From Candidatus Eremiobacteria bacterium (GTDB lineage Bacteria > Vulcanimicrobiota > Vulcanimicrobiia > Vulcanimicrobiales > Vulcanimicrobiaceae): a stretch of DNA of 64,000 nt. A program made the position numbers and the translations under genes. Shown piece after piece: positions 51,211 through 64,000 of the stretch. The notes under the pieces are model-generated. The model searched no databases, was not told the DNA's origin, and saw only the letters and a program-made list of their open reading frames with translations. How positions within the stretch are numbered: position 1 is the stretch's first letter; every line of letters begins with the position of its first letter. The stretch spans positions 896,001-960,000 of the forward strand of contig CAVWUU010000004.1 of assembly GCA_963758295.1 (NCBI GenBank), in the 5' to 3' direction.

Positions 51211-52441
51211 CTATTTTGCGAAGTTCGGTACGCGCAGCGCCTCGCCGGTAAACCCGGTCGCTTCGCGCAGCGCGTCGACTTTATCGAGGCGCTCCCACGG
51301 CAGATCGAGGTCCGGACGTCCGAAGTGGCCGTACGCCGCCGTCTGCTTGTAGATCGGACGGCGCAGGTCCAGGTAGTGAATGATCGCGGCCGGACGCAGA
51401 TCGAAGACTTTCTTAACGGCTTCAGCGATCTGTTCTTCCGCGATCTTCGCGGTGCCGAACGTTTCGACGAGCACGCTCATCGGTTCGGCGACGCCGATCG
51501 CATACGCGACTTGCACTTCGCAGCGATCCGCAAGGCCCGCCGCGACGACGTTTTTCGCGACCCAACGCGCCGCGTACGCTGCCGAACGGTCCACCTTCGT
51601 CGGGTCTTTGCCCGAGAACGCGCCGCCGCCGTGACGCGCCATGCCGCCGTAGGTGTCGGCAATGATTTTGCGTCCGGTCAATCCGGCGTCGCCCATCGGG
51701 CCGCCGATGACGAAACGGCCCGTCGGATTCACGTAGATGCGCGTGTTCTCGTCCATCATCGCCGCCGGAATGACGTGCTTTGATGACGTGTTCCGTCACG
51801 TCTTTGCGGATCTGCTCGAGCGTCGCATCCGGATCGTGCTGCGTCGAAATGACGACGGCATCCACGCGCACCGGCTTGTCGCCTTCGTACTCGACCGTGA
51901 CTTGCGACTTGCCGTCGGGGCGCAGATACGGCAGCGTGCCGTCTCTTGCGAACGTGCGTCAAGACGGCGCGTGAGGTTGTGCGCCAGCACGATCGGCAGC
52001 GGCATCAGCTCCGGCGTTTCGCGGCACGCGTAACCGAACATCATGCCTTGATCGCCGGCGCCGGTCGATTCGAACTCGTCGCTTCTTGCCGGTGCGCGCT
52101 TCGAGCGACTTATCGACGCCCATCGCGATGTCCGGCGACTGTTCGTCGATCGACACGTTCACGCCGCACGTGTTCGCATCGAAGCCGACGACGGAATGGT
52201 TGTAACCGATCTCGCGGATCGTTTCGCGCACGAGACGCGGAATATCGACGTAGCTCTTCGTCGTGACTTCGCCCGCGATGTGTACCTGTCCGGTGATCGC
52301 GAACGTTTCAACGGCGACGCGCGACATCGGATCGTCGCGCAGCATCGCGTCGAGAATCGCGTCGGAAATTGCATCGGCGACTTTGTCGGGGTGCCCTTCG
52401 GTGACCGATTCAGAGGTAAAGAGACGGCGGTACTGATTCAC
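51211..52441 (-). CDS. metK: S-adenosylmethionine synthetase (frameshifts 51770-52090)
   Basis: [73 protein letters not shown]. Confidence 0.96.
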
Positions 52442-52443
52442 GC

Positions 52444-54416
<1,973 letters not shown>

Positions 54417-59103: not shown

Positions 59104-59897
59104 GCAATGCCTCGCAGAAAGATTCGTTTTATGTCTGCGGCTTTGCCCGACACCCGGTCGATCGAGACGATCGCCGCGCAAAACTGCTTCGTACCGGTCT
59201 TTTGTACGTTGAAGCGCTCCGACATGCCGGTTAAGAAGCGATCTAATACAGCTCCAACCTCCATGCCGATGACGCCTTCGGTCGGGCCGGTCATGCCCAC
59301 GTCCGTGATGTAGGCAGTGCCGCCCGGCAGGACCTGTTCATCCGCCGTCTGCACGTGTGTATGCGTACCAAAGATAGCAGAGGCGCGGCCATCCAGGAAA
59401 CGAGCGAGCGCTACTTTCTCCGATGTTGCCTCGGCATGCACGTCCACAATGACGATGGGCGTTGCAACGCGCAAGTCCTCGATCAATTGATCGGCGCAGC
59501 GGAACGGATCGTCGACGGTCGGCATAAACGTGCGGCCCATGACGTTCAGCACGCCGACGGTTACGCCGTCCACGCTAAACGTGCCGCTGCCGCGTCCCGG
59601 AACGGTCGGCGGATAGTTCGCCGGACGAATCACCCGGTCGGTGTTATCTAGATACGTCTTGAAGTCGCGCTTGTCCCAGATATGGTTGCCGCTGGTAATG
59701 AAGTCGACGCCCGTTGCGAACATCTCCTCGGCGGTCTGCGCGGTAAGCCCAAATCCGCCGGCGGCATTTTCGCCGTTGGCAATGCAAGCATGGACGTTGT
59801 ATTGATCGCGGACAAGCGGCACACATCGTTTCAACGTGTCCCGCCCCGGCGAACCTACGACGTCCCCAATGAGCAGAAGATTTAGCGGGTCGTTCAG
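59100..59897 (-). CDS. ymdB: YmdB-like metallophosphoesterase
   Basis: LLIGDVVGSPGR, NGENAAGGFG, TSGNHIWD, RPANYP, DVHAEATSEK, GTHTHVQTAD, TDVGMTGP; start probably CTG 59897. Confidence 0.93.
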   Translation of the reverse strand: MNDPLNLLLIGDVVGSPGRDTLKRCVPLVRDQYNVHACIANGENAAGGFGLTAQTAEEMFATGVDFITSGNHIWDKRDFKTYLDNTDRVIRPANYPPTVPGRGSGTFSVDGVTVGVLNVMGRTFMPTVDDPFRCADQLIEDLRVATPIVIVDVHAEATSEKVALARFLDGRASAIFGTHTHVQTADEQVLPGGTAYITDVGMTGPTEGVIGMEVGAVLDRFLTGMSERFNVQKTGTKQFCAAIVSIDRVSGKAADIKRIFLRGIA

Positions 59898-60445
59898 CGG
59901 CGCGACGATGCCTTCGCTTTCCGTTGAGATTTCAAGAAGTAGACAAGCACTCGGGCTTCTTCGCGAAAGCCCACCAAACTCTTCGATTGCGCCGGATCGC
60001 GCAACGCCTCGATCGCGTAAAGCGCCGCCTCGTCCTGCGCGACCGGATCTGAATCCAAGTGATCCTCGGGAAGCGGGTTGCGTACGAGTGTATCGCCGTA
60101 CCGCTCTGCACAGAGCGTTACCAGCATCTCCAGTTCTTCTTTAGAGAACGTCTCCAGATCGCGCGTGACGTGAATGAATGTGGTCGTGCGATCGCTTTCG
60201 AACTCGACGCGAACCATCTGCGCTTCGTCTTTGGCCAGCAGCAGATACCCGCCGACGTGATCCTCGATGCCGTCGCGGAGCGCCGCCTGTGACTTCTTGT
60301 CGAGCCGGGACTTCACGGCAAACGTAAGCCGCACGGTGCGTTCGGCCGGCACCGACCGGATCGATGCGAGCTCAGGGAAGCGCACCAGCAACGCACATAC
60401 GAGGCTGACGGTGTCGGCATTTTCGACGGGTAGACGGCTATTCAT
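59894..60445 (-). CDS. Conserved-looking hypothetical protein
   Basis: 183-aa ORF (LLVRFPEL, VTRDLETFSKEE, LVGFREEARVLVY) overlapping the ymdB start. Confidence 0.75.
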   Translation of the reverse strand: MNSRLPVENADTVSLVCALLVRFPELASIRSVPAERTVRLTFAVKSRLDKKSQAALRDGIEDHVGGYLLLAKDEAQMVRVEFESDRTTTFIHVTRDLETFSKEELEMLVTLCAERYGDTLVRNPLPEDHLDSDPVAQDEAALYAIEALRDPAQSKSLVGFREEARVLVYFLKSQRKAKASSRR

Positions 60446-60586
60446 AATTTTTGGAGAGTTCTTACTTGAGGATATCCCGCAGAGTACGCCACCCGCCCAG
60501 GGCCGGGTGACTCATCTTTCGGGGGACGCCATGAATACGACGCGGGCTCAAGGCCACACCTGGCCCGTATACGAAAGCAAACCCGC

Positions 60587-61138
60587 ATGAAGGTACGGGA
60601 GTTGCCCGGAGCCTTTGCCCTCGGCCTGCTAGCTTCGGTCCTCGGCCACTCGGCCGCGTATGGAAACGGGCACACCATGGGCGGCCCCTACCACAGTCTT
60701 TTGATCGCGCTGGTCGATGCCGGCGTGGGCGCATTCGTGCTGGCCGCGATTGCCTTAGCATGGTCCTGCGCAGGGCGATGCCTCGACGGAAGCGTCTTAG
60801 CAGCACGCCTTGCAACCTGCCTGCCGGGCATCCCCTTGTTAGGTCTAGCCACGACCGGCTGGTACTGCTTGTTCGAAAGCATCGAAGGTGCGCATGCCGA
60901 CGACCCGCTGCTCTTAATCGCGCTCGCCCTCGGTCTTGCAGTAGTCGTCGTCCACGCCGCGGCAACCGCCGCCATCGCGGCCGTGGCAAAACTCGTCCTC
61001 GCCATCTTCAGGAACGCCTTCGTTCAGCGAACACGGGTCTGGCTATCGTGCTTCGAACTGCCGGTTTTCGTATCGCGAATCGCCACAAGCCGCAAGCTTT
61101 TCGTTCGCCCGCCTCCTTGCATGACGGTCTGCGCCTAA
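60587..61138 (+). CDS. His-containing membrane protein ending in RPPP (putative leader/sensor of the TonB receptor)
   Basis: About four hydrophobic helices; GHSAAYGNGHTMGGPYH and EGAH; C-terminal KLFVRPPPCMTVCA. Confidence 0.72.
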   Translation: MKVRELPGAFALGLLASVLGHSAAYGNGHTMGGPYHSLLIALVDAGVGAFVLAAIALAWSCAGRCLDGSVLAARLATCLPGIPLLGLATTGWYCLFESIEGAHADDPLLLIALALGLAVVVVHAAATAAIAAVAKLVLAIFRNAFVQRTRVWLSCFELPVFVSRIATSRKLFVRPPPCMTVCA

Positions 61139-61186
61139 GGCGCTCCCCAGCTATCGTCACTAAAACTACATTTAATCGAGGAGAAC

Positions 61187-63576
61187 ATGCAACGATTGCT
61201 CGCGGCGTTCGTCGCCGTCTTGTTCTTTTGGTGCGCGCTGCCTGCGTCTGCTGCAACCAGCGGCGTCGTGCGAGGCACCGTGGTCTTCAAGAACAAACCC
61301 CAGGCCGGCGCAGCCGTTTCGCTTACCGGCGAAGGCTCGCGCTTCTCTACCACTACAAACGCGAACGGTGAGTTCGTCTTTCCGGAAGTGCCGTTCGGTC
61401 ACTATCACGTAACGATTCACTCGAGCGGTGCGGCCGATCGCACGATCGACATCGACGTCAGCAGCGACTCGGTCGCGCGCGTCGACGTGTCGCTCGACCA
61501 GCTCAAAGAAATCGCCAACACCAATGTCACCGCGCATGCCGGAGTGGGCGGAACGCCGGTATCCGTGACCGCCGTTTCGCGCGCGCAAATCGCCACGTCG
61601 CCGAACCGGGACAGCCTCGACCGGTTGATTCAAACGGTTCCCGGGATCGTGCGTTTTTCGTACAACGAGCCGGTAGCGCACGGCTTTCACGGCTTGACCT
61701 ATGAAATCGACGGGGCGCCGCTTCCGCAAGCGACGTCTTCCAACTTTGCTGAGTTGATCGATCCGAAGTCGATCGATTCACTCGAAATTTTCACGGGCGC
61801 CATGCCGGCGGAATACGGCGGCAGCCGCGCCGGCGCCATCGTCAACGTCGTGACCAGCCGCCTTTCCGACGTGCCACCGGGCGCATACGGGACGGTGAGC
61901 CTTGGCGGCGGCAACTACGCTTCCGCCGTCGGCAGCATGAACGAACTCGCGCGTTTCGGGAACACCGAAGTCTCCCTCAATCTGAACACGCAGCGCACCG
62001 CTCGCGGCATCGATGCGCCGACGTATCAACCGATTCACGACGACTCGTCGCAAAGCGATGGCTTTTTGCGAGTCATCACGCAGCTCAATCGCGCAATCGA
62101 CGCTGGCGTTCGATCTGTCAAATCAGTTCGCGCAGTTTCAGATCCCCATCAACACGGATTCCAATAATCCGAACGACCCAATCTTTCAGGTTCCGGGCAC
62201 GGACGACGTGCAGCGGGAGTACGACCGCTTCTTCAACCTGAATTACACGCGGAGTTCGAAGGACGGCAACAGCGTTTTCCAGCTGATTCCCTGGGTCCGG
62301 TACACCCGCGTTGCGTATGAAGGCGATCTGCCAAACGACGTACTTGCTCTTGCGCCCAATGGCTCTACCGATCCGAACGCTCCGGCGTTTGCCCAGCAGG
62401 TTGGCCTTGCGCAAGATAGGCGCGCGACGTACACCGGGTTGCGCATGTCCCAGCTGCACACCTCAGAACACCACAACGTGAAGGTGGGGCTCGACGCAAG
62501 CCGCGAGAACTTCGACGCGACGCAACTCTTCGGTTGCTACTCTGCAGATTGTAATCTGGCGCCGTCTACTCCGCCGCCCGCTCCGCCGTCGCCGCCTGGA
62601 TACTTCGGCTTTTCGACTGCGCAGCAACGTGCCGGATCGCAAATCGGACTTGTACGCGCAAGATCAATGGGAGCCGTCGCGCAGCCTCGCAGTTAACTAC
62701 GGCCTCCGGTACGATCATTCCACGGGATACACCGGCGGGTGGCAACTCAGCCCGCGCATCGGCTTCAATCTCTCCGATGGCGACCGCAACATCTCCACGC
62801 GTACTACGGCCGCTTCTACGCTGCACCGCAGTTGGAAGACGTGCGGCAAGATTGCGTTCTTTTTAGCGGATGCACGGGATCGCCGGCGTACGACTTAAAG
62901 CCCGAAGCGCGACTCTTACCTGGAAATGGGCGTCGCGCACACCTTCAACGCACACATGAAGGGTTACGTGAACGTTTTCAAGCGCACGGCCGTGAACGTA
63001 TTGGATACGACGCAGTTCTTGAACACACCGCTCTTCGCGGTATTCAACAACGCAATCGGTGAAGACACCGGCGTGGAATTCCGGTTAGAGGACTCTTCGC
63101 ACTCCGGCGACTCGTGGTTCCTCAGCGGCACCGTATCGGGATCGTATGCGGGCGGCATCTCCGGTTCGACGTTTCTGTTTCCGCCGGACGTGAACGGCGG
63201 ATTGCCGCTCACGTCGCCCGCGCAGCTTGCCCCCGAAGACCACGATCAAACGGTCGCGCGATCGAGAGGATACACGCACCGCTTCGGCGCCGGTCACGCA
63301 TGGTATGGGAGCCTGCAGGCAAACTACGGCACCGGCTATCCGGTCGAGTTTGAAAGCACGAACCAAGATCTAAGTGGGCGTTTGCCCTCGCACACGACCT
63401 TTGACCTCGGCTTCGGAAGGACGCTGCCGATCGACGCACGGCGCGGGCTCGGCGTGAGTCTCGACGTCGAAAACCTGTTGAACCATCAGTACGTCATCAA
63501 GATTGCCAACGGCTTCAACACGACGCAAATCGGGAGCGGCCGGCGGATTTTATTTCGCATAACCGCTCCCTTTTAG
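61187..63576 (+). CDS. TonB-dependent receptor with N-terminal carboxypeptidase-regulatory-like domain (several frameshifts)
   Basis: GAGGAG RBS; signal peptide; GVVRGTV..TTNANGEF.F..VPFG.Y; plug IDSLEIFTGAMPAEYG...GAIVNVVT; GLRYD, LSPRIG, VENLLN; terminal F. Confidence 0.9.
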
Positions 63577-63579
63577 AGG

Positions 63580-64000
63580 CTACTTCAGGTTGACCTGAAT
63601 CATGACGCTGCGGGGACGCGCATAGTGCGTTCCCTGCAGCGAGTTGTCCAGCGTCAACGCATAGCGGTCGTCGAACAAGTTCGCGATCGCGAGCGACATC
63701 GTGGCATGCGGCGAAAGCTGCACGCCTTTTTCCGCGTTGAAGATCAAATGCGGCGGAACTTTGCAGTTAATAACGTTCCCGTTGCAGTTTGCGGGGTCGG
63801 TCGAAAGACCGCTGCCGTACTCGCCGTTGAACGAGAACCAGCCGCCGTGCGTGTCGTTTAACAGCACGCCGCCATTGGCGTCCCAACGTTGATCGTGATC
63901 CGACTGCACGAACATGCCGCCCGGCAGAGCGCCGGCCGCGCAGTTCTGCAACAGCTGTGTTTCGCAGTTTTCGCTGTTTTGCGCCATGCTGTGCGTTAGC
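63580..64000 (-). CDS. C-terminal part of a second TonB-dependent receptor (5' end outside the window)
   Basis: SDHDQRW, YGSGL, IANLFDDRY...YARPRSV; similar to the C-terminus of the neighbouring receptor. Confidence 0.8.
   Translation of the reverse strand, partial: LTHSMAQNSENCETQLLQNCAAGALPGGMFVQSDHDQRWDANGGVLLNDTHGGWFSFNGEYGSGLSTDPANCNGNVINCKVPPHLIFNAEKGVQLSPHATMSLAIANLFDDRYALTLDNSLQGTHYARPRSVMIQVNLK

Follow-up and report, generated by a model that had tools for sequence, protein, structure and literature searches.

RPPP-ending four-helix leaders upstream of TonB-dependent receptors in Vulcanimicrobiota as a putative metal-responsive ribosome-arrest switch

Ribosome-arrest leaders responding to copper are among the closest described systems. 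Copper relieves the stall in CruR of Bordetella pertussis (PMC9426467), for which a toeprint has been reported (PMC12992588), whereas it causes the stall in CutF of Rhodobacter capsulatus, where stalling depends on elongation factor P (EF-P) (PMC9973294, bioRxiv 10.1101/2025.02.05.636593). In Streptomyces, a leader with four transmembrane (TM) helices and three histidines, SLIV_18480, has been validated experimentally; the histidines of leaders of this type are predicted to bind copper, and RAPP/RGPP arrest was demonstrated in vitro and in vivo (PMC12992588). In that study proteomes were screened for RAPP and RGPP only, almost all leaders ahead of TonB-dependent receptors are signal-peptide proteins, and the way in which an extracytoplasmic ligand alters an RxPP stall, through pulling force or not, is named as an open question (PMC12992588). 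The present analysis concerns a 64,000-nt stretch of DNA (the window) from a Candidatus Eremiobacteria bacterium of the family Vulcanimicrobiaceae (GenBank assembly GCA_963758295.1, contig CAVWUU010000004.1, positions 896,001 to 960,000, forward strand), in which an upstream open reading frame (ORF) of 183 amino acids (60587..61138, +) encodes a predicted four-helix inner-membrane protein with the C-terminal motif Arg-Pro-Pro-Pro (RPPP), directly ahead of the gene for a TonB-dependent receptor (61187..63576, +). By analogy with CruR and CutF, this leader is probably a cis-acting ribosome-arrest switch that makes translation of the following gene depend on periplasmic metal status, probably that of copper; most likely it works as these two do, yet is no member of DUF2946, the family to which they belong.

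The putative arrest motif, of the RAPP type, lies at 61106..61117 (+) and is followed by six residues and a TAA stop codon (61136-38), 48 nt short of the receptor ATG (61187). By analogy with the CruR toeprint, the P-site codon would be 61112-14 and the A-site codon 61115-17. The proline codons contain an anti-Shine-Dalgarno sequence, CTCCTTG (61113..61119, +), complementary to the Shine-Dalgarno (SD) region of the receptor, CGAGGAG (61177..61183, +), and an inner stem (61122-28/61153-59) together with a hairpin around the stop codon (61131-43) would juxtapose the two (61122..61159, +). This arrangement had been put forward in an original prediction made from the letters alone, and all its coordinates proved exact, from the ORF with its RPPP codons and the gap to the anti-SD/SD pair and the two inner stems; on folding, all three helices appeared in the minimum free energy and the centroid structures.

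A word-indexed search returned 53 proteins including the query, several of them named from Candidatus Cybelea or Eremiobacteraeota, and a profile search returned 222, the best 150 of which were pooled onward. The homologue pool comprised 202 proteins, 188 of which reach the end of the profile, with 14 truncated or frameshifted ones set aside. RxPP was present in 186 of the 188 (177 RPPP, 8 RAPP, 1 RSPP) and absent from two. It lies mostly 3, 6 or 7 residues ahead of the stop codon, a conservation that favours the original prediction, and the ORFs share with the functional class of arrest leaders a length below 300 amino acids and an exported or membrane-bound product. Within the phylum Vulcanimicrobiota (Eremiobacterota), the profile matched 191 of the 296 genomes from the taxonomic family to which the window belongs and none of 104 from other families, a tally that includes four unpublished genomes; a broader profile recovered 9 of 20 family genomes that had been negative before. 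No leader match was found in a plasmid search. Neither Pfam nor NCBIfam yielded a family for the leader or for five distant homologues, and the window leader matched no Pfam family at E<=1, hence no PF11162 (DUF2946). Two hallmarks of DUF2946 are also missing: no cysteine column is conserved in 164 full-length homologues, which leaves no counterpart of the CxxC/CxxxC motif, and in place of a signal peptide or single N-terminal TM helix with a small, poorly structured body, the leader is modelled as a four-helix bundle.

The membrane domain, residues 3-142 (60593..61012, +), was modelled by AlphaFold2 from 125 sequences with a predicted local distance difference test (pLDDT) value of 90 and a predicted template modelling score of 0.78, as helices 3-25, 33-64, 68-76, 82-100 and 108-142 followed by an extended tail. 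Lysine and arginine are enriched at the N-terminus, in the middle loop and in the tail, and aspartate and glutamate in loops 1 and 3, a charge bias that points to an N-in/C-in topology. On this model and this bias, six conserved histidine and glutamate residues would lie on the periplasmic side, at outward helix ends or in loops, as candidate metal ligands (60647..60895, +): H21 (60647), H29 (60671), H36 (60692), E97 (60875), E100 (60884) and H103 (60893). Among the 164 full-length homologues, H21 and H29 are conserved in 100%, E97 and E100 in 99%, H103 in 92% and H36 in 80%, compared with 46% for M31. The sensor originally predicted to be His-based therefore keeps its histidines and gains E97 and E100 as equally conserved members of the set; that these residues bind metal is suggested by their conservation and placement.

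Beyond residue 142 the model contains no helix, and a basic, unstructured linker (61013..61105, +) leads to the motif. It is variable in sequence (mean column identity 29%) and fixed in length: in the 125 sequences the H103-R174 spacing has a median of 71 (range 69-76) and the A134-R174 spacing a median of 40 (39-45), in contrast to H21-E100, which ranges from 58 to 86. The stretch between the last helix and the P-site proline measures about 34 residues, and the ribosome exit tunnel accommodates 30-40; the fixed length suggests that the linker is a spacer matched to the tunnel. Structural searches yielded generic helical matches only: in the PDB, Foldseek found nothing similar to the leader model at E<=0.001, and VIA-align gave only FtsX/MacB-type four-helix arrangements (Z ~8, root-mean-square deviation 3.6-5), which were rated common for helical bundles. 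A reading of the leader as a transporter was dropped.

For the gene junctions, 100 loci with 102 leader copies were fetched, an in-frame RxPP being present in 99 copies and absent from three (one at a contig end); removal of one duplicate and of L033, where the next start is 244 nt distant, left 97 loci from 38 genera. The leader is always directly upstream and on the same strand, the distance from the Arg codon to the downstream start having a median of 78 nt (range 57-117). The next gene encodes a TonB-dependent receptor for 79 of the 97 leaders, a class assigned by default and from the N-termini, and backed by Pfam through the barrel in 3 cases and through the plug in 2 others. Eight leaders precede a protein of about 300 amino acids similar to the Phenol_MetA_deg barrel family (Atlas 0.95), after which CopC comes in L064. 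A CopC-CopD-signal-peptidase fusion is the downstream gene in four loci, YcnI following it in L100, and CusF and a cytochrome c protein are found once each; in the remaining four loci a short ORF intervenes, with TlpA or a multicopper oxidase beyond it. A multicopper-oxidase motif also occurs just 5' of the leader in 7 of the loci, from 7 genera. The expected adjacency to transport genes is thus borne out, with TonB-receptor and copper genes both downstream; the leader stays directly ahead of the regulated gene while its partners change, and the partner list overlaps that of the CruR homologues. These partners bear on an alternative in which the leader would monitor membrane-insertion capacity in the manner of MifM or ApcA, its histidines and glutamates being structural. 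A polytopic substrate with a tunnel-length spacer would suit such a monitor, and it was ahead of sec/yidC genes that RAPP-like motifs first came to light, but none of the 97 downstream genes is a sec or yidC gene, the partners being receptors and copper proteins, and one face of the bundle keeps its charged His/Glu residues without variation; this alternative is considered unlikely.

The window receptor, as originally predicted, belongs to the TonB-dependent class, and carries CarboxypepD_reg and Plug domains. Its coding sequence is distributed over three reading frames in the assembly, the barrel being seen in intact relatives of about 800 amino acids, and 20 aligned relatives are full length except for one internal frameshift (L066). 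Because the relatives are intact and housekeeping genes of the window, metK and ahcY (within 51211-53835), likewise appear frame-split, in what seems an indel-rich assembly, the split is probably due to assembly indels, and pseudogenisation of the receptor is unlikely. The protein of about 300 amino acids (L007, L008, L031, L035, L061, L064, L070 and L093) is unannotated and exported, often followed by CopC/CopD, and has histidines at its predicted mature N-terminus, making it a candidate outer-membrane copper channel. The fusion of CopC-CopD with a signal peptidase S26 domain is 673-679 amino acids long (L088, L091, L099 and L100). In L068, L081 and L094 a sequestered SD is followed by an ORF of 16-17 amino acids that resembles a frameshifted remnant of a receptor signal peptide, and its stop codon overlaps or abuts the start of the TlpA gene, as if the cassette had been taken over and joined to a different gene. 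Fur-family-like genes lie near L005, L065, L090, L093, L097 and L098, in some cases beside a second type of receptor; judged from gene content, other metals (zinc, nickel or iron) may be involved.

The position of the anti-SD within the motif appears to be reflected in codon choice. The P-site proline is encoded by the rare codon CCT in 74 of the 97 loci, against 60 of 717 other proline codons of the leaders (8%), and CCT is the majority P-site codon in 24 of the 38 genera. Where the SD partner lies inside the motif codons CCT is used in 66 of 75 cases, and in 6 of 16 where the partner now falls in the nucleotides just after them or in the stop codon, the SD having changed to match. Slow decoding of a rare codon is disfavoured as the cause, since the bias drops where the anti-SD relocates. 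In L034, L035, L037, L039, L041, L052 and L055 it is now the final leader codons and the stop that carry the anti-SD, opposite an A-rich SD that matches it, and the proline codons revert towards CCG/CCC.

Energetics were consistent with a masking function. In the window, the native proline codons rank 5 of 64 synonymous choices for sequestering the receptor ribosome-binding site (RBS), and the cost of opening that site falls from 10.6 to 2.1 kcal/mol when the footprint of a stalled ribosome is masked. Across the 97 loci the median cost is 12.4 kcal/mol, falling to 7.7 with the footprint masked and to 8.7 after synonymous recoding, and masking lowers it by >2 kcal/mol in 82; for 81 control RBSs from the window genome the cost is 8.1, equal truncation lowers the median by 0.4, and a drop of >2 occurs in 13. 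A count of paired changes was made on 64 of the 97 junctions, chosen by omitting most lineages with a shifted anti-SD, and gave 19 cells with two-sided change against 7.5 in shuffles (0/500). When aligned, these junctions show a consensus GC-rich hairpin whose loop contains or adjoins the stop codon. The proposal that the anti-SD masks the receptor RBS is thus favoured by codon bias, by turnover of the anti-SD and by some compensatory change, the formal pair count being mixed; what argues for an RNA element beyond chance is comparative.

The same junctions bear on the reading that the membrane protein itself is functional, as a metal-binding accessory of the receptor, with RPPP and hairpin serving only constitutive coupling or sensing EF-P levels for co-expression. 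The bundle is conserved and well folded (pLDDT 90), a terminating ribosome opens the RBS too, and PPP stalls are sensitive to EF-P, of which the genome has one intact and one split gene copy. Against this, the leader and its RBS hairpin travel as a cassette that sits immediately ahead of one unrelated partner or another, RPPP interchanges with the EF-P-refractory RAPP, and the spacer length is fixed, so that this reading is held to be quite improbable. Least probable of all is a metal-sensing arrest leader whose main output would be Rho-dependent transcription attenuation, with anti-SD pairing secondary: CruR acts in this way (PMC9426467) and many junctions have C/U-rich single-stranded stretches before the SD, but the gap is short (a median of 78 nt from Arg codon to start, against 162 nt in cruR) and selection on the anti-SD codons indicates control at the RBS.

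The capacity of RPPP to arrest ribosomes is suggested by mutants of known leaders and by swaps within the family. ApdP A132P, which creates RPPP, gave nearly the same arrest in Bacillus subtilis as the wild type (2.4 against 1.9 units) and partial arrest in Escherichia coli, and ApdA A121P was partly permissive (PMC12992588); among XPPP motifs placed in the NlpD context, RPPP also stalled most strongly (PMC4176338). In the present family, RPPP is replaced by RAPP in 10 of the 97 loci.

Several observations weigh against the proposed metal-responsive switch. A RAPP-like motif by itself is often insufficient for arrest (PMC12992588), and EF-P, which in published work normally rescues PPP stalls, is encoded in the window genome. 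The single-sequence fold of the junction is unexceptional (z = -1.36; 21 of 200 shuffles fold equally well), 28% of the 81 control RBSs cost as much to open as the window receptor RBS, and a terminating ribosome unmasks the latter equally (2.1 kcal/mol). In 15 of the 97 loci masking lowers the cost by <=2 kcal/mol, and in 7 of these by nothing; after masking, the SD is still predicted to be mostly paired in many loci (median 0.78), a measure regarded as uninformative, for which opening energies and controls were used instead. Cognate anti-SD/RBS pairs outdo those of the three nearest relatives in just 60 of 96 cases (two copies in one locus being merged), base pairs with two-sided change number 4 against 3.4 in shuffles (224/500), and sliding the alignment by one column gives a near-equal covariation score (0.121 against 0.123). 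As for the metal, His/Glu ligands without methionine or cysteine suit zinc, nickel, cobalt or iron equally well; copper-gene partners are a minority of loci from few genera, and related loci are not independent; and the receptor shows no recognisable copper-receptor signature, NCBIfam/TIGRFAM receptor models, used as a test for the OprC type, giving none over cut-off for two intact relatives. The two efp genes lie at G000:C3:10328-10879 and C4:1336728-1337280, one intact and one frameshift-split in the assembly.

In the proposed switch, the nascent leader would be inserted co-translationally as a four-helix bundle, with His21, His29, His36, Glu97, Glu100 and His103 facing the periplasm as the topology suggests. 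With the bundle out, the fixed linker would fill the exit tunnel and the ribosome would halt on RPPP, in keeping with motif and spacing. The halted ribosome would cover the proline codons, which are also the anti-SD, and the receptor RBS would open, whereas with no ribosome on these codons the hairpin would conceal it; the computed energies support both steps. Metal on the bundle would alter the pull on the nascent chain and with it the dwell time, and it is through dwell time that the switch must act, because a terminating ribosome also opens the RBS. Since RPPP contains a run of three prolines, EF-P may help to set the threshold. Given uptake partners (receptor, CopC/CopD and YcnI), a CruR-like sense, in which metal relieves the stall and turns the receptor off, appears somewhat likelier than a CutF-like one, in which metal prolongs the stall.

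Further cassettes of this kind occur nearby and elsewhere. Another TonB receptor, convergent with the first, reaches into the window with its C-terminal end (63580..64000, -) and is headed by a second RPPP-ending membrane leader outside the window (L222; G000:C4:961936-962466, -). This sister family aligns with the first leader family end to end and weakly (167 columns, E 0.0036, probability 9%), and is present in 15 of 151 genomes, one of them unpublished; all 14 sister loci examined end in RxPP (13 RPPP, 1 RGPP), and 11 of them have a CxxC in the last outer loop, missing from the copy in the window genome. A third type of membrane leader, ending in RGPP, precedes a TlpA-like gene in L088, L089 and L099, and in L088 and L099 stands back to back with the leader of the CopC-CopD operon. 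Beside the twin receptors (G000:C4:963000-968300), one TlpA-like, two SCO-like and one Nramp-like gene were read from translations. It is conceivable, if doubtful, that Vulcanimicrobiota use interchangeable polytopic sensor-leaders (the His/Glu, sister and RGPP-TlpA types), whose metal sites would signal via the nascent chain, with RPPP as a two-input switch for metal and EF-P.

Upstream of the leader, a bipartite promoter-like motif, AGGYY-N17-19-GAA (60551..60575, +), ends 11 nt 5' of the start codon. It was found in 50 of 91 leader upstream regions, ending 9-11 nt before the start in 44, against a mean of 0.5 and a maximum of 3 in shuffled regions, and an SD-like sequence precedes the leader in only 11 of the 91. 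The position of the motif suggests that the leader transcript is nearly leaderless; a sigma-70 consensus promoter was looked for and none was found. The motif stays with the leader even in relocated copies, and the word TACGAC (60530-60545), about 50 nt 5' of the leader, is conserved at the orthologous locus between divergent genes. The divergent gene, unannotated and conserved, encodes 183 amino acids (59894-60445, -) and accompanies the leader in 56 of the 97 loci, from 17 genera; beyond it lie genes which we take to be ymdB and a spoVS-like gene.

The leader family offers a compact test system for ribosome-arrest sensing, with a modelled sensor, six candidate ligands, a near-fixed spacer, natural RPPP/RAPP swaps and an output in a single hairpin open to silent recoding. 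A widespread RPPP class escapes screens that look for RAPP/RGPP only, and the leader flags an uncharacterised TonB receptor and the outer-membrane protein of about 300 amino acids as candidate metal importers in an abundant soil lineage. A literature search, which left most subscription journals uncovered, found no paper on the family, and in 9 of the 10 supplements of PMC12992588 there is no mention of RPPP, Eremiobacter or Vulcanimicrob.

Among known arrest leaders, SecM, ApdA, ApdP and ApcA share with the present family an upstream ORF for an exported or membrane protein, with an Arg-x-Pro-Pro core close to its C-terminal end, but they monitor Sec/YidC and precede sec/yidC genes, and RPPP is there a mutant form, partly to nearly fully permissive. 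CutF (DUF2946) has in common with the leader its place in an upstream ORF, a PPP stall at the C-terminus and the sensing of periplasmic metal while export proceeds co-translationally (stall and sensing being predicted here), an SD-shielding stem-loop and a multicopper oxidase partner; it differs as a small secreted CxxxC protein with no Arg before PPP and a stem-loop described as intergenic (PMC9973294, bioRxiv 10.1101/2025.02.05.636593), whereas the leader is a predicted four-helix His/Glu membrane bundle with RPPP, an anti-SD in the stall codons and no DUF2946 match. CruR (Bp2923, DUF2946) resembles the leader in an RxPP a few residues from the stop, a fixed spacing between sensor and motif and a TonB receptor downstream, its homologues having CopC, YcnI, Sco and AhpC-TSA among their partners, and departs from it in its CxxC, RAPP, poor structure, Rho termination across a 162-nt gap and EF-P independence (PMC9426467).

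Nearest in architecture are SLIV_18480 and the leaders upstream of YcnI in Actinomycetota, described in PMC12992588 as having four TM helices, conserved histidines and copper genes downstream. Their existence contradicts the premise of the original prediction that known metal-sensing leaders are short and CxxC-based, and qualifies its claim of a distinct polytopic His-based family, in which distinctness of sequence stands while a polytopic His leader had already been published. An actinobacterial look-alike family, A4, was fetched by a tail motif, so that its tail columns are invariant by construction, and 40 of 80 full-flank loci were aligned; that A4 is the SLIV_18480 family is suggested by the description of the latter in PMC12992588. 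Many A4 loci precede YcnI-like genes; at the YcnI locus of Rubrobacter, the upstream position is taken by a two-component system and not by such a leader. Profile comparison by hhalign of the leader family (A2) with A4 gave no similarity (probability 0.2%, E 0.3), and among 201 Actinomycetota genomes the broader leader profile found a single partial match, a weak one within a frame of 641 amino acids in G465, while an Atlas cluster with Actinomycetota as its commonest phylum scored 0.96, which would allow remote homology. The leader and A4 models each have four long helices in similar order, with different library hits. Both families place a histidine at the end of helix 1 and a ligand at the end of helix 3, and the distance from the last histidine to the Arg has a median of 72.5 residues in A4 against 71 in the leader family; A4 differs in having His and not Glu on helix 3, RGPP and not RPPP, and a monoderm host without a TonB receptor. 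The shared plan may reflect convergence or very remote homology. As read from sequence, what is new in the leader family is the predicted polytopic His/Glu sensor, the natural RPPP and the putative anti-SD inside the stall codons.

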